A stretch of 62,533 nucleotides of DNA, counting the filler, from Basidiobolus ranarum (lineage: Eukaryota): assembly GCA_040143965.1 (NCBI GenBank). It is 39 parts of 39 records of this genome, joined end to end, with 100 filler letters (N's around TTAATTAATTAA, not from the genome) between each part and the next. Parts side by side here need not be neighbours in the genome. Positions count along the whole stretch, not along the records: positions 3,224 to 4,734 come from JASJQH010011840.1; 38 more parts are not named here. One strand, 5' to 3'. The position numbers and the translations under genes are program-made. A model generated the notes under the pieces. That model saw nothing but the letters and a program-made list of their open reading frames with translations, was not told the DNA's origin and did no database searches. Positions 3,124 to 51,428 of this stretch are shown here, in pieces. Numbering within the stretch: the first letter of the stretch is position 1; every line of letters starts with the position of its first letter.

Positions 3124-3234
3124 NNNNNNNNNNNNNNNNNNNNNNNNNNNNNNNNNNNNNNNNNNNNTTAATTAATTAANNNNNNNNNNNNNNNNNNNNN
3201 NNNNNNNNNNNNNNNNNNNNNNNATAGCATACAA

Positions 3235-3307
3235 GGACTGGTAGCTCAGTGGTTAGAGCACCTTGCTAGAGTGAAGGAGGTCCCAGGTTCAAATCCTGGC
3301 CAGACCA
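3235..3307 (+). tRNA. tRNA-like sequence (anticodon position AGA, short variable loop), probably part of a mobile repeat
   Basis: Cloverleaf GGACTGG/CCAGACC, D arm GCTC/GAGC, T arm CCAGG-TTCAAAT-CCTGG; A and B boxes intact; mismatches at 3:70 and 31:39; no T4 terminator. Confidence 0.8.
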
Positions 3308-3333
3308 ATATTTCTCCCTAAATAATTTCAATA

Positions 3334-3665
3334 GAAATTTGGTAAATAGCAAATTATTTCTTAGTAGTTAGCTTATTCATATACCAATTACTTAGCACTC
3401 AATTCTGCCATTCAAAAACATCTGTTCCTTGCTCTAATTGATACAAATAGCATTAGATTACTTTTACTAGTTTTCCTATTTTCTCAAAATTGCTCCAAAT
3501 CACCTCAAATTTTTGCCCATGTTTACCGGCATGTGTGTTATGATCAATGCATGTCCAATAGTAACCTATAAATGAAACATATTCAAAATAATAAAACAAA
3601 AGTGTAGAATTCATAAATACAAGTTGTTTCTATAACATTTTGAAATCCTGTAAGTGCTTTTATCA
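3334..3665 (+). repeat. LTR family B (first bases missing)
   Basis: Aligns by eye to 3928-4278 and 26887-27237; ends TTTATCA. Confidence 0.8.
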
Positions 3666-6444: not shown

Positions 6445-7191
6445 ATAGTTTGGCCTAATTTGTGTGTGTGATAATCTGATGGTATTTTTAGGAACGCTGC
6501 AAGACAGACTTCTTGGTTAGATAGATCAAGATATGCAGTATTATTGTTTTAGCCATGGGGTAATCTATTCAAGCAATGACATATCTATTTGTGGCTGGAA
6601 ATTTGTTTACTGTATATTGGGGATATGTTGGCTGAATTCTTTATTGATATATTTGCTAAAATCCAAGAGCTTATTCTCATTGTGAATGGTAACAAGAGTC
6701 AGCTATTTGCCAAGTATCAGTGCTATTCAAAGTTTCAGATTTTTAGCAATTTTTCCACCATTAGTTTGCTGGTAAAGCATATTGATGTTGTGGAGTTATG
6801 TCTAATCAGTCAAATATGTGCATATGTATAGACTAAACACAACAAGATTCTTTTACTTTTTGAGTCTTGTTATGGCTGGAATACAAAGCCTAAAATATCT
6901 AAATAAAGACATGCATATTAGTTTGAATTTCTACAGCAGTGAACCCAGTGTTTGCCATTTGAAAATTAGATTTTTGCAAAAATTGCCAGATATCAAATAA
7001 CACCGGCCAAATTTAAGGATCACTATATCAACATGTATGAGTACCATCAAAATGCTATCAAGAGACCACCATCACACCATCAAAATCCCTGGCAGAATGC
7101 AAGCCACCAATATTGTGATGGTTCCCTGTCAGTTTTGCTATTTTTGAAGGTTGATTCAATCTGGATTGAAACAATTTTATTTTTGTTAGTG
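6445..7191 (+). mobile_element. CMC transposase C-terminal region plus terminus B
   Basis: Homologous to 53084-53790 (inverted); ends ATTTTTGTTAGTG, an inverted CCCTAACAAAAAT variant. Confidence 0.7.
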
Positions 7192-7227
7192 TCTAGCAAG
7201 CAGCTCTAACCACTGAGCTACCAGTCC
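7192..7227 (-). pseudogene. 5' half of the tRNA-like repeat, truncated by a CMC terminus
   Basis: Reverse complement reads GGACTGGTAGCTCAGTGGTTAGAGCTGCTTGCTAGA; upstream flank ATTGCATGCAA resembles ATAGCATACAA of the other copies. Confidence 0.8.
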
Positions 7228-7285
7228 TTGCATGCAATGCCTATATTGCTCGGGAACCTTAACCTACTCTGTCAATGCATGGTAC

Positions 7286-7954
7286 CCCTAACAAGAAGAA
7301 AGTCAATTTGATCTGGATTGGATCCATCATTAAAAATTGCAAAACCATCAGAAAACCATCACAATATCAGTGGCTTGCTTGCTGCCATGGATTTTGATGG
7401 TTTGATGGTGGTTTCTTGATGAGATGGTATTCATACATGTTGAAATACTGATCCTCAAAATTGGCATGCATTATTCAATATCCAGCAATTTTTGTAAAAA
7501 TATAATTTTCAAATGGCAAATTACTGGGTTTACTGCTGTAGGAATTCAAATTGATATGCCCTAACAGAAATTTGAGGATTGTTATTGTAGGAAAACCGTC
7601 ACAATTTTAATCCATTTGGGATTGACCATTTAAATATCAGCATAAAATTGTCAAGTTAGATTTGATTTTAATCAATTTTTTCAGTTTCAGGAGTGAAATT
7701 TCAAGATCTCACAAAATAGTTGCAAATGATTGGCTAAAATCTCAGAGAACTATGGATCAACACATGTGCAAAAAATGTAACTCAAATTTTACACAATTAC
7801 CACTTGAACACTAATTTGTCACCTTTGAAATCCCTAGTCTCTTTGATATATTCTCCTGAATATTTTTATAGAGTTCTTCATACCCAAGGTTTAGCTCATA
7901 CCCAACACGAGTTTGTGTCAATATCTCCATCAAAGCCCACCATTGTATTAACGT
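7286..7954. mobile_element. CMC terminus B (7286) with terminus A (7559) and ORF2 3' end nested inside
   Basis: CCCTAACAAG at 7286 and CCCTAACAGAAAT at 7559; 7810-7954 is the reverse complement of 13165-13310. Confidence 0.8.
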
Positions 7955-8054: not shown

Positions 8055-8165
8055 TCTACTATATAAGTCACCATATACTCTTAAGAATAAAGTAACTAAA
8101 ACACACTATCATAAGTTGCTTCTAATACTCAAAGTCTATCCCCATTATGTCAAGATCCTCCAACA
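8055..8165 (+). repeat. LTR family D, 3' part
   Basis: Ends GTCAAGATCCTCCAACA, as in 57844-58160. Confidence 0.8.
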
Positions 8166-8917
8166 AATTTCAATGTTAAGAAGTGAATTAATTTTTCTCC
8201 TAGCTCCATCTTTGAGTTAATGAAGTGTCTTCTTAGAAATATGATGTTGGCAGCACAACATGCTTTGTAGATGTCTTCCAAAGTTTTCCATACCTTCTTA
8301 GCAGTTTTGACTCTTAAACATTGAATTAGAAATATGTCATTAAGACAAATTGTGTTAAGGCACTTGGTTCTTTTTTAACCTGGAGTCAAATTAGGTTACA
8401 GATAGATGTTCATTGTCTTCTACCACAGTGTCTCAAAATATTTTTTTTGCAGCAGCATTTTCACTTGAATTTTCCAAGCTTGATAATTGGTTCCATCCAA
8501 CCTTTCTTAAGAGGGAAAGGTTTTGGAAGTCTGAGAAGTAGGTATTGCAGAGAGTGGAAGCTTGAGGCTTACAACCTGTTAAAGTATTTTGGGAGCATGT
8601 TGGAAGTGGCTTAGAGAATTAGAAAATTGGTGGTATACACTTATTGATTTATTGAGTATTCAGTTGATATTTATAGTTTTGTCAAGATGTAAACAAACTA
8701 ATGTGTAGAATGTGTCAAGAAAGGTACTAGAAACATGTACACAAAGTTCAGGGCTCCTAGCACTAGTTGGAAAATCAATATATCTGAGAACTTCCAAGTT
8801 GGGAAAAATAATCTAAGTAAATTGAGAATAATGGGTGATATCTAAGTGAATTATAGGATAACAAAATACTAAGCTATATATGACTATATAGGTGTTTAGG
8901 CAATGCTAATTTCAACA
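8166..8917 (-). mobile_element. Copia 5' end: LTR-A (8577-8917), PBS and gag start
   Basis: TGTTGAAATTAGC...TTTAACA, then GGTTGTAAGCC PBS and RLDGTNYQAWKI gag motif. Confidence 0.88.
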
Positions 8918-25540: not shown

Positions 25541-25651
25541 TGTTGAAGTTTATTGTCTTTATCATATTTATTATCTCTATCTTTATACACCTAATTATTT
25601 CATATATCACATATAAGTTAGTTAACATTACTTAGTCAAATATCACTTAGC
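25541..25651 (+). repeat. LTR family C, partial
   Basis: TGTTGAAGTTTATTGTC start. Confidence 0.85.
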
Positions 25652-25751: not shown

Positions 25752-27237
25752 AGTAGCTAGTTTAGCTCCATTAGATCAATCCTGGCACTCTCAGCCATCC
25801 ATAACCTTGATCTACATTAAATGGATGTAAAAACAGCCTTTCTGAATGGAAATCCAGAAGAAGAGATCAATATGGAGAAACCAGATGGATTTGTTGACCC
25901 AAAACATCCTGACATGGTCTGTAAAAAGCAAAAATTGCTCTATGTACTCAGGCAAGCACCAAGGTCATGGCACAATATGACAGATAACTATTTGGAATCT
26001 CTGGAATTCCAAAAATGCACAGCAGATAAACCCAATCAGAAGCTTATGCTGAATCAGTCTAGATACATCCCAGACATCCTAAAATGCTTAAACATGGAGA
26101 ATTGGAAGCCTGTATCAACACCAATGGAACCCAATGTGAAATAAATTAAAATTTCATCTGATCTGGCCCAAAATGACTCAAATCAAAGCTGGGAGTTTCC
26201 TTATCAATTCATGGTTTGTAGTTTAATGTATACAATGGTTGGAACATGTCCAGACATTGCTGTGGCAGTGGGAACTGTCAGCAAATACCTCAAAAACTCA
26301 GGATCTGAGCACAAAACTGCAGTAAAACAAATATTCAGGTATTTGAGAGAAACTGTAGATCTAGTTCTGGAATACTCTGCCACTCCTGATGCACAAAATA
26401 TTGAAGGCTACCATGATGCAGACTGGGGAAGAAACCTTGATGATAGAAGATTGACAACTGGATACACTTTTCTCTATGGTGATGGAACCATAACTTGGAA
26501 TAGTAAGAAGCAACCAACAAAAACACTTTTGACTACAGAAGCAGAGTATATGGCTGTCTCTGCTACTACACAAGAAGCTATGTGGTTGAGGAAGTTCTTT
26601 ACAGATTTAGGATATAGGCAAAATCCTGCTATTACTGTATTTGAAGATAATCAAAGTTGTATTTCATCAGCTAAAAACCTTACATTTCATGCTAAAACAA
26701 AACATATATATATTAGTCATCATTTATTTAGAGAAGCAATAGAGAATGATATAATTGAACTTGTCTATCACCCTATGGAAGAAATGATAGCTGATATCTT
26801 AACACAACCTTTAGCTAAAGCACAATTTGAATTATTAAATATAACTTAGGTTTAAGAGAAATATAAAATAATTAGTTGAGTGGGAATGTTGAAATTAGGT
26901 AAAAGCAACTCATTATTTAGTAGTTAGTTTATTCATATTCTGATTGTTTAGCACTCAATTCTGTTATTCAAAAATGTGTGTTTATTGCTCTAATTGATAG
27001 AAATATCAATGAGATCACTTTTACCAATTTTTACTATTTTCTCAAACCTTTGCCAAATCACCTTAAATTTTCACCCATGCTTAACAGGCATGTTTGTTAT
27101 GATCTAAGCATGTCCAATAGTCCTATTTCATAGTAAACTATAAATAAGACATATTCAATTCAATAAAACTTAAGTGTCTAATTCACAAATCCAAATCTTG
27201 TCCAAAACACTTCCAAATCCCCTAAACACTTTTATCA
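25752..27237 (+). mobile_element. Copia RT/RNase H, PPT and 3' LTR family B (26887-27237)
   Basis: MDVKTAFLNG, QAPRSW, DADWG, FEDNQSCI, MIADILTQPL; GAGTGGGAA|TGTTGAAATTAGG. Confidence 0.95.
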
Positions 27238-27358
27238 GTTTTTGCTCTAAACATGGAANNNNNNNNNNNNNNNNNNNNNNNNNNNNNNNNNNNNNNNNNN
27301 NNTTAATTAATTAANNNNNNNNNNNNNNNNNNNNNNNNNNNNNNNNNNNNNNNNNNNN

Positions 27359-30572: not shown

Positions 30573-32078
30573 AAAATCTATATATCTGAGAACTTCTAAG
30601 TTGGTAAAAATATTCTAAGTAAATTCCGATTGAGAATAATTGATAATATCTTAGTGAATTATAAGATAACTAAGTACTAAGCTGTATATGACTATATAGG
30701 TGTTTAGGCAATGCTAATTTCAACAGAAATGTGGTTGTAACAGAAGATCACTTGTTCATATCTGCTCTATCTATGACATCCAACAAGGATTCTCAGATGT
30801 GGTATATTGATTCTGAAGCCTCTCAACATTTCACAAATGAAAATCATTGGTTTGTGGATTATAAAGAAAACCTAATGAGAAAAGATTTCATGGGAGATCA
30901 CTGTACATTGGATGCCTTTGGAATGGGAACAATTCAAGTAATTTTAACTGGTGCTTCTGAAGAGAAAGCAAATACTTCTAAGGATATACTACATGTTCCA
31001 GATATTGACAAGAATTTAATATCTTCAGGCAAGACCATGTTGGAAGGGCTAAAAGTCAATTTTGATAAGTCAGGATTCATCATCATTTATCAAAATGGGA
31101 AATATTTAGCTTTGGGGAAAAAGGATCAGAACTGATACACACTTACATATAATCCAAGAGGTTTATATGTAAACATAAGTTATTCCAATCTACAAACTGC
31201 TCAATTATAGCATAAGAAATTTGGCCATGTTGGATTTGATTACTTCAGCAAAGTGATCAAAAATTGCCCATTTTCTGGAATTCAAATTAATCCCCAACCA
31301 AATTAAAGATTAGTGAGGGATGGATCTATGGAAAACAAGCCAGACAATCATTCAAGGGCTTTGGTTTAATCAAATCTGTCAAAAAATTGGATCTAATTCA
31401 CTCAGATTTGTGTGGACTTACACAAAATCAATCTTAAGGTGGAAAAAGATTTTTAATCACATTTATTGATGGTTATACAAGATACACTTGGGTCTACTTT
31501 ATGCAAGGAAAAGAATAAGCTCTCTCTATCTTTAAAGATTTTGAAACACTTGTGGAGACTGAAATTATAACTAAAATCTAGGAAAACATACTGATAATGG
31601 TGGAGAATATGCTTCAACCCTATTTAAGCACTTTTGCAAAGTTCATGGAATTAAGCAAGAAACTACTGCCCCTATTCTCCTCAGCAAAACGCAGTTGCTG
31701 AAAGAGCTTATAGTACTAAAATAGAAATGGCAAGATCTATGATAAATGCACCAAATTTATCTCATAATTTTTGGGCAGAATATGTTGCCATAGCTGTATA
31801 TCTGAAGAATAGGAGTTTCACTATAAGTCTGCTTAACTCTACACAATAGCAAGCATTGTTTGGAGTTAAACCTGACATATAACATATGAGGATCTTTGGA
31901 TACATTGCTTATTTCAAAATTATGACCCAAAATCTGTTGAAATTAGCATTGCCTAAACACCTATATTGTCATATATAGCTTAGTACTTAGTTATCTTATA
32001 ATTCACTAAGATATTATCAATTATTCTCAATTGGAATTTACTCAGAATATTTTTACTAACTTAGAAGTTCTCAGATAT
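30573..32078 (+). mobile_element. Copia protease-integrase (30726-31934) bounded by two independent LTR-A ends
   Basis: WYIDSEASQH, HKKFGH, LIHSDLCG, TDNGGEY, PQQNAVAER; LTR-A inverted end at 30725 and start at 31935. Confidence 0.93.
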
Positions 32079-36995: not shown

Positions 36996-37700
36996 GCAAA
37001 GAAGGGTGCATACCCGGGCTTTGAGGGGACATATCGTAGGCATCTACGTAACCCGATGATCGAGCTTCCGATGCCAGCCGAGGACGTTATAGAGGGTGTG
37101 GATGCAGTGATCGTAAGCCATACTCACAGCGACCACTGGGACGATGTGGCTCAGGAGCTACTTCCCAAAGGCATCCCTCTGTTTGTACAGCATGAAATCG
37201 ATGCTCAAATCATTCGTGCACAGGGATTCATCAATGTTCACGTCTTGGGTGAAAACACAGTGTTTGAGGGCATCCGCTTGGAAAAGACGGGGGGACAGCA
37301 TGGTACAGACTCTATGTACTCCTCACATGTCCTTGCGGAGAAGCTTGGCGAGGTAATGGGCATTGTCTTTCAGGCACCCGGCTCGAAAACCGTATACATT
37401 GCCGGTGATACCGTGTGGAACAGCGAAGTTGATATGGCCATAGCTAAGTTCAAACCGGATGTGATCGTTCTGAATACTGGTGATGCTCGTGTGACTGGCT
37501 TCAGCGGCTCCATCATCATGGGTAAGGAGGACACACTCCATGCGTACCAAGCTGCGCCGAACGCAACTGTTGTTGCTGTGCATATGGATGCCATCAATCA
37601 TACAGCATTAAGCCGCGAGGAGCTACGAGAATATGTAAAACAGACTGGTATTCAGGATCGTGTATTAATCCCTGCTGATGGTGAAATTTTGAAGCTTTGA
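36996..37700 (+). CDS. MBL-fold metallo-hydrolase (bacterial UlaG/YddR-like, Lactamase_B_2/3), 5' truncated
   Basis: Open from contig start AKKGAYPGFEG; SHTHSDHWD, YIAGDT, VAVHMDAINH; no introns. Confidence 0.92.
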   Translation, partial: AKKGAYPGFEGTYRRHLRNPMIELPMPAEDVIEGVDAVIVSHTHSDHWDDVAQELLPKGIPLFVQHEIDAQIIRAQGFINVHVLGENTVFEGIRLEKTGGQHGTDSMYSSHVLAEKLGEVMGIVFQAPGSKTVYIAGDTVWNSEVDMAIAKFKPDVIVLNTGDARVTGFSGSIIMGKEDTLHAYQAAPNATVVAVHMDAINHTALSREELREYVKQTGIQDRVLIPADGEILKL

Positions 37701-38600: not shown

Positions 38601-40105
38601 TTGGTTGTGGAGACCGCCAAAGCAGGTTTAGCCCTATATCTCCAATACCGTCCAGAGAAGCAAACCGTTCATGCGATCATGATCCCCCGCTCCCCCGCCG
38701 ATCATTTCGGGGGAGTCCGGGGGGTGTTACCCAATGGCGAGCCTGATGAAAAGGTTCAGATTATAGCACCCGAAGGGTTTCTGGAGCATGCTGTTAGTGA
38801 GAATGTGTTTGCAGGAAACGCAATGCGGCGCCGAGCTCATTACATGTACGGAAACTTTATACCAAAATCGGATCGCGGCCATGTCGACGTAGGCTTGGGC
38901 AAAGCACTCGCAGGCGGCAGGCAGTCTCTTTTGTCACCCAATGATTTAATTTCACGAACCGGCGAAAAGCGCATTATCGACGGTGTTGAATTTGAGTTTC
39001 AAATGGCCAATTGTACGGAGGCTCCTTGTGAGATGATCATATATTTGCCTCAGCTTCGCGCTCTCTGCGGTGCTGAAGTCATGACGCATAATATGCATAA
39101 CCTCTATACTCTACGTGGAGCGGAGATCCGAGATGCCGTTCAATGGTGGAAGACGATTCATGAAGCAATTAACATATTTTTGCATAGATCTGATGTTATC
39201 TTTGCTCAACATCATTGGCCAATCTGGGGACAAGAGAATATAGGCCGCTTCTTGACGAAGCAAAGAGATCTTTACAAATATCTTCATGACGAAACGCTGC
39301 GTTTGATGAATCACGGACTGAACATGAATGAAATTGCCAACACAATAGTGCTACCTCCAGCTCTCAGCCAAGAATGGTACAATCGTGGTTACTACGGAAC
39401 GACCTCACATAATGTTCGTGGCATTTATCAACGATACTTGGGATTCTACTCTTCGAATCCCGCCGAGTTAGACCCGCTTCCTCCAGTTGAAGAATCTCGT
39501 AGATATGTGGATTTTATGGGCGGTGCCGATGCTGTTGTCGACAGGGCCCAGACTTGCTTCAACCAAGGCGAGTATAAATGGGTGGCTCGCGTTCTTAGCC
39601 ACGTCATGTATACTGAGCCAGATCATACTTCAGCCCGCAAATTGCTCGCTGATACATTTGAACAACTAGGGTACCAAGCCGAAGCGGCCACATGGCGTAA
39701 TGAGTACCTGTCCGCTGCGACCGAACTGCGTATGGGTCTCCCAAAGATCAAGGCGAAGGGTCAAGATCTGGACTTTATTCAAGCTATGACGCTTGAAATG
39801 TTGTTTGACTATCTTGGTGTTCGCTTGAATGGCCCCAAGGCTGATGGCCTTAAATTTGCTATTGATTTTCGATTCGAAGGGCCATTGAGCAGTGCTGATC
39901 CACATCGTATTATAGCGATGGTCCAGAACTCCGTCCTAGTGTATACTCTAGTTTTTACTGATGGTATCGGCCATATTACTGCTGATGTTATTGTTTCATT
40001 GCCTCGCCCTGTATTTGTCGGGCTGTGTTTTGGGTCAATTCAGCTAGAGAAAGCTTCCGCCTCGGGTATGATCAAGATGCAAGGGGATCAAACCATCTTA
40101 CAGAC
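38601..40105 (+). CDS. Alkyl/aryl sulfatase, SdsA1/BDS1 family (MBL, dimerisation and SCP-2-like domains), both ends truncated
   Basis: DHFGGVRG, EAPCEM, HNLYTLRGAEIRD, FAQHHWP, RGYYGTTSHN, EQLGYQAE, FDYLGVRLNGPKA; 500 codons without intron. Confidence 0.95.
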
Positions 40106-45513: not shown

Positions 45514-46320
45514 TGTTGATATTAGCATTGCCTAAGCACCTATATAGTCATATATAGCTTAGTACTTAGTTATCTTATAATTCAACATGATAGCATCCAT
45601 TATTTTCAATTGGAATTTTCTTGGAATATTTTTACCTACCTAGAAGTTCTCACATGTATAGATTTTTCAAACTTGTACTAGAAGCACCCAAACTTGCACA
45701 CATGTTCCTGGGACCTTCCTTAACATATTCAACATGTCGCATTGCTTACATCATGACAAAACTATATATGTCAACTTTCTACTCAACCTATCAATAAGCA
45801 AATACCATCAATTTCTCTATTTCACCAAACCACTACCAACAGGCTCTCAAATACTTTAACAGGCTATGAGCCTCAAGCTTGCACTCTCTGTAATGTATAC
45901 TTCTCAAACTTATGGCACTTTTCCCTCTTTTGAAAAATTGGATGGAACCAATTATCAAGTTTGCAAAATTAAAATGAAAATGCAGCTGCAAGAAAAAGAA
46001 CTATGGGACACTGTTGTAGGAGAAGAAACCAATGCAAAACTATCAGAAACTAAAGTTTTACTCCAGGTTCAAAAAGAACAAAGTGCCTATGGGGCAATTT
46101 ATCTCACTGTTGAAGACAACTTGTTAATACAATGTTCAAGAGCTAAAACTGCCAGGAAGGTATGGAAACCTTGGAAGACATTTACTAAACAAGTTCTGCT
46201 CCCAACAAGATGTATCTAAAAAGACAATTCTTAAGTTAAACATGAAGCCAAGAAGAGACATTAAATAACTAATTAACAGAGTCACTACTTTGGTGGATGA
46301 AATGGAATGCATTGGATCTG
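45514..46320 (+). mobile_element. Copia 5' end: full LTR-A (45514-45861), PBS (45862-45872) and gag
   Basis: TGTTG...TTTAACA|GGCTATGAGCC; EKLDGTNYQVCKIKMKMQLQEKELW; a second LTR-A/PBS lies at 45018-45180. Confidence 0.92.
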
Positions 46321-48012: not shown

Positions 48013-48599
48013 TGTTGGAGGATCTTGACATAATGGGGTAGACTTTGAGTATTAGAAGCAACTTATGATAGTGAGTTTTAGTTAGTTTATTCTTAAGAGT
48101 ATATGGTGACTTATATAGTAGAANNNNNNNNNNNNNNNNNNNNNNNNNNNNNNNNNNNNNNNNNNNNTTAATTAATTAANNNNNNNNNNNNNNNNNNNNN
48201 NNNNNNNNNNNNNNNNNNNNNNNCTTAGAAGTTCAAATATGCATACACTAACTACTTAATAATAATTTGCTATTTTCCTAATTTCAACAAAATCCTAGGT
48301 TTTATTGTCCTTATGTGAAGAAAACTCTTCAAATATTGCTTTTTGTAATAATTTTGATCCTTGACACTCCAGAACTTGATCTAGAGTCTGTGGCATGTTG
48401 CAGAAAGCTACTTAAACAGATGAATTGTCATTGAAAGTGTTCACCAGCTCCCTTATTGTTTCTATGTCTGGGTGAACTTCTTGTTTTGAATCATCCACTG
48501 ACATTATTGGGACTAGAATTCCAGATCAACAGGGCTCAGATAAAGCTAGAATTTTGTCAGACCCTTCCTCAATAGTGCTGATTGTGTTTTCTGGATCAA

Positions 48600-49130
48600 G
48601 GACTGTGATTCAAGGTGAAAATTTTGAATTTTGTTAAATATCACATGAATGCACTTAATAAACTTCTAAGTTTTGGTAACAAACAGTTTGTAGGCCTTTG
48701 ATCCATCCCAGTAACCAAGAAATATGCCTTTTTGGCTTTTAGGCTCCAATTTAGAGCATTTTTGAGCTAGATTTTGGCAAAATGCTGAGCATCCAACAAT
48801 CCTGTGATGATCCACACTTGGTTTTGATCCATATAGGGCTTCAAATGGAGTAGACTTTTGTAGCAATCTTGTTGGGAACCAGTTTTTCATATAGACCCCA
48901 GTGGAGACAGATTCATACCAGTATTAGAAATCTAACTTTTGATCATATAACATTGTTCCAGCCATCTCCACTATGGTCCTATTATCACATTCTGCAACTC
49001 ATTTTGCTGAGGAGGATAATGTACAGGAGTTTGCTGCTTAATTTGATGTATAGAACAAAATTAACAAAGTCTTTAGAGCAATATTTTCCACTATTATCAC
49101 TCCCCAGTACCCTCATTTTTTGTACTGATT
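48600..49130 (-). mobile_element. Copia integrase C-terminal region
   Basis: SDNSGKY, TPFEALYGSKP, KLEPKSQKGIFLGY. Confidence 0.88.
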
Positions 49131-49174
49131 CTTTCACCAATACATACAATGATATTAGCTTTAATAAAATATTC

Positions 49175-49726
49175 ACCCATCTGAACCCCTTTAGATAACC
49201 ATTCAAATACTGCAATCAAAGGCTCCAAGAAGCTATCTATAAGCACTGGTGATTTAGGTCCAGATATGATGGATAGTATCAAAATATTATGACTCTTATA
49301 CCATTCAGAAGGAGGAAGATTTAAGTTGATTAAAATTATTGGCCAGCAAGCCTTTCCAATGGTATATTTGTTTAGTAAGAAACCATCCAGAGCCAATGCA
49401 AATGCATGATCATATGTGTTCTCAAAGAAACCTTGACTTTTCAGATTCTGGTAGTGATATCCATCAAGTATATCAGTAATACCATCAGCTTTATGGTGAG
49501 TACTTTGGTATTGGATCAATGATCTATATTTGGGTGATTTCATCAAAACTCTGAGATGGGTAATTAATGGTATGTAAGCTGAATATGAACAATATTTACC
49601 TGATTCAGCGATTGCCAATTGTGTGGAAACAGTACATGACTTCAGGTTTTTCAGATCACCGGTGAAAGCCAAACAACCATTTGGACATGAAGGCAGTTTA
49701 ATTACTGAAGGATTATAAGTCATACA
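49175..49726 (-). mobile_element. CMC Transposase_21 (TnpD-like) core
   Basis: CPNGCLAF, YIPL, DILDG, LALDGF, WPIILINLNLPP, GPKSP, SFLEPL; also at 46340-46520. Confidence 0.92.
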
Positions 49727-49826: not shown

Positions 49827-50751
49827 TCTTGACAAAACTATAAATGTCAACTTTCTACTCAATAAATCAACAAGTGAAAACCACCAATTCCTCTAATTCT
49901 CCAAACCACTTCCAACAGGCTCCCAAATACTTTAACACTAACTATTTCATATATCACATATAAGTTAACATTATTTAGTCAAATATCACTTAACTGCAAA
50001 TTGGAATATGTATTTTATATATGTGAATATTGTGAGAATTAGCAATTCCATATTGGAAATTTCAAAAATTGTGCAAATAGCCCCAAAGATAGCTCATTTT
50101 ATTCCCACAGATGTTCTGAACACAACCCCAGTGTTAGTTTTCTGTATTTTGCTCAAAATGTATAAATGCTTTATTTCTGGACAAGAAATAATTATCTCAC
50201 AAAAGCTATTCACAACTGTACTTTTCTAAAGTTCCTCTAAACAGACCATATTTTCCCAAAAAACACTGTATTTACATCCACAGAATTGGATTATATTGGT
50301 CATCAAGTTAAGTATGGATATGCTCCAGTTTTGTCACAATATATTAAAAGATTGATGTCATGATTATTACTTTGTTTAGATTTGTATACAAACTAAATAA
50401 AGTGTACCCCACTTGGTGCTTTTCATCCCCCTAACGCTAACCCTAATATTCAGGAGAATATATCACAGAAACTAGGGATTTCAAAGGTGACAAATTAGAA
50501 TTCAATGGGTTAATGCATAAAATTTGAGTTACATTTTTCACAGATGTTGTTGATCCATAGCTTTCTGAGACTATAGCCAATCATGTGCAACTCTTTTGCA
50601 TGATCTTCAAATTTTGCTCCTGAAACTGAAAAAATTGATTAAAATTAAATCTAACTTGACAATTTTATGATGGTGAGTATATAGTCAATCCAAAATGGTT
50701 TAAAATTGTGATGGTTTTATTTTGATAATGATCTTCAAATTTCTGTTAAGC
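49827..50751 (+). mobile_element. LTR-A end, LTR-C body, CMC ORF2 end and terminus A
   Basis: CCCAAATACTTTAACA; CATATTTTCCCAA; CAAATTTCTGTTAAG. Confidence 0.78.
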
Positions 50752-51244
50752 ATTATGTCCTGGAGAGGTTCCCACTTGACTGATCTTTCATCTTGCTTGT
50801 GAATACTGCTAGGAGATCTTGAAGTTGGAAAGTTCACTTCTTTATAGAACAAGCTGAGAAGCCCTTGCTTGCCTAGAGGGAATACTTAGTGGACCTTTGA
50901 CAACAATATCTCCAGAAACTCACTCCTTTTATGTTTTATGTTAATCCTGGTCTCATTCCACTAATTTCTATTAATGACATACCATTTTTGCCATTTTTGC
51001 TCCTTCCCACTCCACTTAACAGTGTCTTAGACTCTACTGACTTAACTTCTCTACTTTGCAACATTCATACCAATACTCCAGAACTTCACACTTGAATTAC
51101 AAAACTATAAAAGTATCTACAGCTTCTTTGTTTTTTTCAAATAAAGATTCCACCTGTTGGTGACTGTCTCCCACTAATCCTGCTCACATTTGTAGTATGC
51201 ATTGGAAGGTGTACAGTCTATTGAAATTATTTAGGGAGAAATAT

Positions 51245-51317
51245 TGGTCTGGCCAGGATTTGAACCTGGGGCCTCCTTCACTCTAGCAAGGTGCTCTAAC
51301 CACTGAGCTACCAGTCC
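51245..51317 (-). tRNA. tRNA-like sequence, second full copy
   Basis: One substitution (variable loop) relative to 3235-3307; both flanks shared. Confidence 0.8.
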
Positions 51318-51428
51318 TTGTATGCTATNNNNNNNNNNNNNNNNNNNNNNNNNNNNNNNNNNNNNNNNNNNNTTAATTAATTAANNNNNNNNNNNNNNNN
51401 NNNNNNNNNNNNNNNNNNNNNNNNNNNN

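Follow-up and report, generated by a model that had tools for sequence, protein, structure and literature searches.

A tRNA-like sequence in Basidiobolus ranarum as the probable 3' end of a Helenus-type LTR

What is a sequence that both tRNA finders call 'tRNA-Ser(AGA)', yet whose copies go on matching each other beyond the tRNA on both sides? We asked this of a window of 62,533 nucleotides from the genome of Basidiobolus ranarum, the window being the whole stretch of DNA that was analysed. The initial annotation had proposed a tRNA-like cassette carried inside an LTR, in the manner of Helenus and linked to copia retrotransposons.

Helenus elements are TRIMs with tRNA-derived sequence in their LTRs (TRIMp3; Kojima 2024, PMC10886601). 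In that paper, a whole element measures 311-1263 bp and has two LTRs around a short internal part with PBS and PPT. The fungal members comprise 113 families in Pucciniales and a few Agaricomycetes, for which section 3.2 of the text names three hosts and Table 1 lists two. They are described as copia-dependent, with 5-bp TSDs, and as a source of numerous false tRNA calls, tRNA-Ser-AGA among them. Their LTRs start with TGTTG, carry the tRNA-like part in sense orientation near the 3' end and close with a short tail ...ACA or ...ATA, and many of their internal parts open with the iMet anticodon-loop PBS GGTTATGAGCC. Pol III transcription was proposed from motif conservation, and no evidence was reported that the tRNA-like part primes reverse transcription. 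SINE2 insertions into LTRs are the proposed origin, and an age of roughly 130 My is proposed for the fungal elements in Pucciniales. The name Helenus is kept for elements of TRIM size, 'not a few LTRs' in Repbase containing tRNA-like pieces (PMC10886601).

The repeated unit and its tRNA-like part

The window consists of 39 contigs of 1500-1512 bp each, ordered by size and joined by runs of N around TTAATTAATTAA (for example the linker at 3124-3223); the order of the contigs has no biological meaning. Overall G+C is ~33%, and repeats are common to nearly all contigs. In 76 stop-to-stop ORFs, Pfam matched copia and gypsy retrotransposon domains and one tnp2/CACTA transposase; it also identified an alkyl sulfatase, a protoglobin and an MBL-fold ORF. 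Two B. meristosporus proteins match the protoglobin, at 75% and 68% identity, and the contig of the protoglobin also has a piece of a copia LTR (family A, described below); fungal LTR pieces are likewise found in the contig of the MBL-fold ORF (36996-37700). The alkyl-sulfatase ORF (501 aa, 38601-40105) is uninterrupted and fills a contig of ~40% G+C, and over 87% of its length it shows 100% identity with a protein named as Basidiobolus ranarum. Its next named relatives are from Mucoromycota (68% and below) and many bacteria (~50-55%), and the ORF possibly represents a bacterial-type gene that early-diverging fungi have had for a long time.

The unit under study was found three times in the window. 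Full copy 1 (+ strand) has an 11-nt leader (3224-3234), a 73-nt tRNA-like part (3235-3307) and a 26-nt tail (3308-3333) that ends in the repeat terminus ...TAATTTCAATA, the putative 3' end of an LTR. Full copy 2 lies on the - strand at 51219-51328 (leader 51318-51328, tRNA-like part 51245-51317, tail 51219-51244). The third copy (7192-7238, - strand) is truncated to the leader and tRNA-like positions 1-36, of which 43/47 nt are identical. ARAGORN, Rfam and the comparison of copies thus confirmed the placement of the 73-nt sequence at 3235 (+), 51245 (-) and, half-truncated, at 7192 (-) in the initial annotation.

The two full copies have 112 nt in common (the 11 nt before the tRNA-like part, its 73 nt and 26-28 nt after it), of which 111 are identical and the sole mismatch is T/C at position 58. 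They remain identical through ...TAAATAATTTCAATAGA and then diverge. The leader belongs to the repeat, being identical in copy 2 (11/11) and matching at 9/11 positions in the truncated copy, and the 26-nt tail is shared too, which bears out the claim that the repeated unit is larger than the tRNA. What is visible of the unit is its last 110 nt. Both unit-bearing contigs also hold the LTR families A and B. Taken with the Basidiobolus matches of two genes, the protoglobin and the alkyl sulfatase, this makes a Basidiobolus-like fungus (Zoopagomycota) the most likely host of the unit.

The third copy is cut in the anticodon loop by a CACTA-like repeat (6913-7191, - strand), whose terminus CACTAACAAAAATAAAAT abuts it. 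A second, inverted copy of this repeat lies at 7283-7559, 93 nt from the first. This non-autonomous repeat has the terminus C(A/C)CTAACAAAAATAAAAT, and its two head-to-head copies bracket the truncated tRNA-like copy; it also occurs in the contigs at 53030-, 40206- and 54631-. A tnp2-type transposase fragment is located at 49100-49726.

We then considered whether the tRNA-like part could be a tRNA gene. ARAGORN made two 73-nt 'tRNA-Ser(aga)' calls, at 3235-3307 (+) and 51245-51317 (-), and each full copy scored 58.6 bits with the Rfam tRNA model, whose gathering score is 29. Boxes A (TAGCTCAGTGG) and B (GGTTCAAATCC) are both intact, and the motifs TAGCT..TGG and GGTTC agree with box A (TRGCY...YGG) and box B (GGTTC) of Helenus. 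Despite the Ser(AGA) call, the variable loop has 5 nt and there is no long variable arm, and the stems contain two mismatches, A3-A70 and a G-G. Because of the absent arm and the two mismatches, the tRNA-like part is predicted to be unable to work as a tRNA-Ser. A genuine tRNA-Ser has a long variable arm, intact stems and a downstream Pol III terminator, and none of these was found here. The AGA anticodon (Ser) instead sits in a class-I structure, an isotype disagreement of the kind by which the tRNA-like part of Helenus is recognized as not being a functional tRNA. The 26-nt tail contains no TTTT and no A-run, so the earlier statement that there is neither a T4 terminator nor poly-A holds. 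No 5S rRNA match was found in the window by Rfam, at the gathering score or at E<=1.

The unit terminus, local copia LTRs and assembly break points

The unit terminus ...TTTCAATA lies 26 nt after the tRNA-like part and ends in TA, as opposed to the canonical CA. The terminal TAATTTCAATA is the reverse complement of TATTGAAATTA, which matches the local copia LTR start TGTTGAAATTA at 10/11 positions. This match is present in both full copies, and we therefore agree with the initial annotation that the terminus mirrors the copia LTR termini of the window. With up to one mismatch, the TGTTGAAATTA motif has 18 matches in the window, where 5.2 are expected. Inspection of these showed that seven start LTR family A (TGTTGAAATTAGCATTGCC...), five start family B (TGTTGAAATTAGGTAAATAGC...), two are the ends of the unit and four are unclassified. 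From ~8e-5 chance matches per base, the odds of a chance match within 2 nt of a repeat boundary are ~4e-4.

The orientation of these LTRs is given by contig 17, where family B stands as a 3' LTR (26887-27258, + strand) after a copia RT ORF and the purine tract GAGTGGGAA. Since the ORF and the tract precede it, the orientation of family B is fixed, and with it that of the TGTTGAAATTA terminus. Family A (TGTTGATATTAGC...TACTTTAACA) is found at 45514-45875 (+ strand), followed by the PBS-like GGCTATGAGCCTCAAGC and copia gag, and elements of this family are a candidate class of autonomous partner. In two copies the family A end ...TACTTTAACA is followed by GGTTGTAAGCCTCAAGC or GGCTATGAGCCTCAAGC and copia gag. 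Read as a PBS, the sequence after family A (8055-8917; 45514-45900) is GGTTGTAAGCC or GGCTATGAGCC. The PBSs GGCTATGAGCC and GGTTGTAAGCC match the tRNA-iMet anticodon-loop PBS GGTTATGAGCC at 10/11 and 9/11 positions, and they belong to copia family A, not to the unit itself. This anticodon-loop (half-tRNA) class of PBS is known from Drosophila copia, Ty5 and Copia elements of rust fungi. All protein matches of the copia Pol sequences are at <=57% identity, most of them to plant or unnamed sequences.

In contig 3, the unit is joined directly to a family B copy (3334-3665, + strand) that lacks its first 4 nt (TGTT), so that the unit end abuts family B at its fifth base (...CAATA followed by GAAATTTGG). 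Judging from the sequence of this junction, an insertion 4 nt inside a family B LTR would give such an arrangement, and we presume that this LTR was the insertion target. The sequence that follows copy 2, in contig 32, occurs once in the window.

Two other readings of the unit end were considered and set aside. In one, the unit was read in reverse, as an LTR end plus a PBS copied through the whole primer tRNA; it was rejected because the pol ORF and purine tract of contig 17 orient family B, and because the published Helenus layout fits the sense orientation. In the other, contig 3 would hold an LTR-LTR circle junction, which was dropped since in copy 2 this unit end adjoins unrelated DNA.

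A separate observation concerns the contig at 30573-32078, in which family A starts are inverted near both ends, at 30715 (minus strand) and 31935 (plus strand). Read by eye, its two ends are for the most part reverse complements of each other over the final ~25 nt. This contig represents either two head-to-head elements or a fold-back assembly artefact.

Both full copies of the unit lie at contig ends and begin at the same base. The initial annotation had taken this common break as a mark of the repeat, and the contig ends of the whole window show how it should be read. Eight of the 78 contig ends break 109-112 nt within a repeat that is 96-99% identical in another contig. When TGT[TC][GA] was sought 105-116 nt from every contig end, 10 sites came up, and in five of these (c1_R, c6_L, c16_R, c30_R and c32_L) a real LTR terminus (TGTTG or TGTTA) lies exactly 110-111 nt from the end. 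The remaining five look like chance 5-mers or internal sites. Examples of contig ends 110-111 nt past an LTR terminus are 1403-1512, 8055-8165, 25541-25651, 48013-48123 and 49827-49937. The assembler enters any multi-copy repeat for ~110 nt and then stops. This ~110-nt signature, an assembler effect, can serve to locate the borders of repeats in this assembly, and it also exposes two further LTR families, TGTTGAAGTTTATTGTC and TGTTGGAGGATCTTGAC.

The unit-bearing ends both break 110 nt from ...CAATA. They fit the ~110-nt rule if the repeat ends at ...TTTCAATA (3333 and 51219), which places the terminus independently of the sequence comparison. As both contigs break ~110 nt into the repeat, the repeat continues upstream beyond the contig ends. 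The same break base in both contigs is thus good evidence of repetition, as had been supposed, and no evidence of an element boundary, other contig ends likewise stopping 110-111 nt inside LTRs through the assembler effect. Under a de Bruijn model, the breaking of both the T and the C variant at this point suggests at least two genomic copies of each.

Relatives in metagenome contigs

A 25-mer from the 5' end of the unit retrieved five loci from a metagenome contig collection. Four of these (L001, L003, L004 and L005; 41-45% G+C) contain a homologous pseudo-tRNA-Ser(AGA), identical at 57-61 of 73 positions, with the same CTAGAGT loop as the unit and a similar start of the tail. L002 was rejected as a relative, being an unrelated tRNA cluster. 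A 38-mer of the unit gave no exact matches in the metagenome contig collection, neither a 44-mer nor a 25-mer had an exact match in the genome contig collection, and there were no exact-pattern matches in the viral contig collection. A Pfam scan of the ORFs of the metagenome loci returned nothing useful.

An entire LTR was recognized in L004, where positions 1624-1813 form a 190-bp solo LTR (TGTTGG...CTACA) with CTTGG on each side as a 5-bp TSD. L005 represents that locus again (94% identity across 2.5 kb), so the two count as one independent insertion and the clean TSD case is single. L001 and L003 have a common 168-nt unit that ends in ...TTTTC(C/T)(A/G)ATA. A GCTTG/GCTTG duplication in L001 fits a TGTTGG start, though ambiguously, as L003 shares ~11 nt further upstream. 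In the relatives, the shared sequence begins 54-65 nt before the tRNA +1. Among the five sequences, three of the 22 cloverleaf pairs, in the T-arm and anticodon-stem, are changed on both sides and still paired; these paired changes may be a weak sign of constraint on the cloverleaf fold.

L001 and L003 also share a second repeat, located at 969-1235 of the reverse complement of L001 and 146-411 of L003 and 86% identical over 267 nt. In one of these contigs the second repeat follows the tRNA-like LTR, and in the other it precedes that LTR.

Interpretation and comparison with known systems

We consider that the repeated unit is probably the 3' portion (last 110 bases) of a Helenus-type LTR, its R-U5-like end. 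We base this on the LTR-type terminus, on the sequence that the copies share ahead of the tRNA start, on the solo LTR from the metagenome and on the published LTR layout. These results favor the initial proposal of a copia-linked, tRNA-like cassette in an LTR in the manner of Helenus, with the exception of the common contig break, which does not serve as a boundary. The miniature (TRIM) size of the element, its transcription by Pol III, its copia dependence, its non-autonomy and its use of the local copia integrase are properties that we infer by analogy. The two full copies would be 3' or solo LTRs, because neither of their flanks has a second copy or a PBS-like motif. For copy 2 the ~460 nt that follow were searched and contained neither. 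The PBS motif GGTTATGRGCCCAG had no matches in the window at <=2 mismatches, and TGGTAGCRAGAG had two matches at one mismatch, neither adjoining the unit.

By analogy with Helenus (Kojima 2024, PMC10886601), the 5' LTR, with boxes A and B intact, would recruit RNA polymerase III, and transcription would start near the tRNA-like +1. The tRNA-like part and tail would then act as R-U5, and as the tail is without a T4 terminator, the transcript could extend across the short internal part and into the 3' LTR. A copia element might supply Gag, reverse transcriptase and integrase in trans for copying and insertion, with 5-bp duplications. The two near-identical copies could then be 3' or solo LTRs of recent insertions, one of them 4 nt inside a copia LTR, and the third copy would be older and cut by the CACTA-like element.

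An alternative close to this reading is that the unit comes from a full-length, autonomous LTR retrotransposon, copia or other, whose LTR captured a tRNA-derived piece, and not from a miniature, Pol III-driven element. The tRNA-like pieces in Repbase LTRs (PMC10886601) offer a precedent, the unit terminus resembles those of the local autonomous copia LTRs, and the visible part stops short of the internal region. We nevertheless regard it as unlikely. Four LTR families have starts in the window (A, B and the two at contig ends) and none of them carries the unit, the relatives L001, L003 and L004 are short, LTR-size units (168-190 bp), and the full A and B boxes and the cloverleaf are kept between distant relatives, as in Helenus.

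The remaining alternatives do without an LTR. A tRNA-derived SINE (SINE2) mobilized by a LINE, with an LTR-like 3' end by chance, would also be short, dispersed in three places and headed by a tRNA-like part with A and B boxes, and Helenus itself is proposed to stem from SINE2 insertions into LTRs (PMC10886601). Against this, a SINE2 should begin at its tRNA head, but all three copies already agree over at least 11 nt ahead of the tRNA +1, and in the relatives the common sequence begins 54-65 nt ahead of it. A simple-repeat tail, which the initial annotation had named as a mark that would speak for a SINE, was looked for in the unit tail and is absent, and the tail is not A-rich either. The terminus carries an LTR motif at chance odds of ~4e-4, one relative is bounded by TG...CA and flanked by a fixed 5-bp TSD, and no non-LTR (LINE) reverse-transcriptase domain was found among the 76 ORFs scanned. 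This makes a SINE very unlikely. The unit could also be a low-copy tRNA pseudogene, copied with its flanks by segmental duplication and not mobile, as no more than three copies are seen and the full pair shows 99% identity. Since the flanks diverge completely at 110-112 nt (a sharp LTR-type terminus marks this point on one side), since both contigs were broken in the manner seen at multi-copy LTRs, and since homologous units with unrelated flanks are present in contigs of other organisms, we judge a pseudogene the most improbable of the three alternatives.

Given a Helenus-type LTR, we can ask what its host implies. Helenus is a known kind of element, and a member in Basidiobolus would come from a fungal phylum outside the published host list. 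Searches of titles, abstracts and terms gave no match linking Basidiobolus to Helenus-type elements, and for Helenus they listed Kojima 2024 and one sugar-beet preprint. We put at about even the chance that Basidiobolus (Zoopagomycota) has a Helenus/TRIMp3 lineage that was active recently. It would be the first known from an early-diverging fungus, and it would share its pseudo-tRNA-Ser(AGA) cassette and LTR terminus with the Helenus of rust fungi. If so, the known fungal range of Helenus would widen from Basidiomycota to Zoopagomycota, which bears on whether its origin was ancient, transferred or repeated. In that case the age of fungal Helenus would far exceed the roughly 130 My proposed for Pucciniales, or the elements would have moved between fungal phyla, or they would have been born repeatedly from the same tRNA-derived SINE. 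Such elements inflate tRNA gene counts, as the two 'tRNA-Ser(AGA)' calls here illustrate, and LTR-borne tRNA look-alikes should be masked in annotation before tRNA genes are counted. They also form a class of mobile Pol III promoters, which can rewire nearby transcription.

Other systems resemble the unit in part. Cassandra and Ajax follow the same principle, a Pol III-type small-RNA promoter inside an LTR (PMC10886601), but carry 5S rRNA and not tRNA, and the window has no 5S match. The tRNA-derived SINEs (SINE2), from which the cassette probably descends, also contain boxes A and B in a head derived from a tRNA. Their 5' end, however, is the tRNA head itself, their 3' end is A-rich or a simple repeat, and they rely on LINEs; the unit showed none of these features. 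Among animal elements, the oyster Helenus-2_CGi has the CTAGAGT anticodon loop and a tail containing ttttcaata in common with the unit. It differs in its TGTAG...TTACA termini, 4-bp TSDs and Gypsy-type PBSs, while the unit terminus is of the copia/fungal type.

Fungal Helenus differs from the unit in its hosts (Pucciniales and a few Agaricomycetes vs Basidiobolus, of the Zoopagomycota) and in that the unit is known from its LTR end alone. We compared the unit with the published Helenus consensus sequences by word look-up, in which the long shared words fall in tRNA-conserved arms and could reflect common tRNA ancestry. In the printed passages, an 18-nt search word led to a 21-mer of the 5' half of the unit in Helenus-1_MAec-LTR, Helenus-6_CroRib-LTR and Helenus-15_CroRib-LTR, while Helenus-4 and Helenus-16_CroRib contain a 23-mer of its 3' half (PMC10886601). 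Words from the anticodon, leader and acceptor start (ctggtagctcagtgg, gctagagtg, ctagagtg and gactggtagc) had no matches in the published consensus text, where line wraps can hide matches. The ends are more alike: Helenus-1_MAec-LTR ends in ...ttttctgacatttcaata (tttcaata), its last eight bases identical to those of TTTCAATA, and Helenus-1_HemVas-LTR (116 bp) ends in ...ccttaata, with a TA end as in the unit (PMC10886601). The layout is also common to both: a sense tRNA-like part with the two boxes near the 3' end, then a tail that is short and T-rich and closes with ...ACA or ...ATA. Fungal Helenus and Basidiobolus further have in common false tRNA-Ser-AGA calls and, in the genome, elements with copia-type TGTTG termini and a PBS close to the iMet anticodon-loop type.
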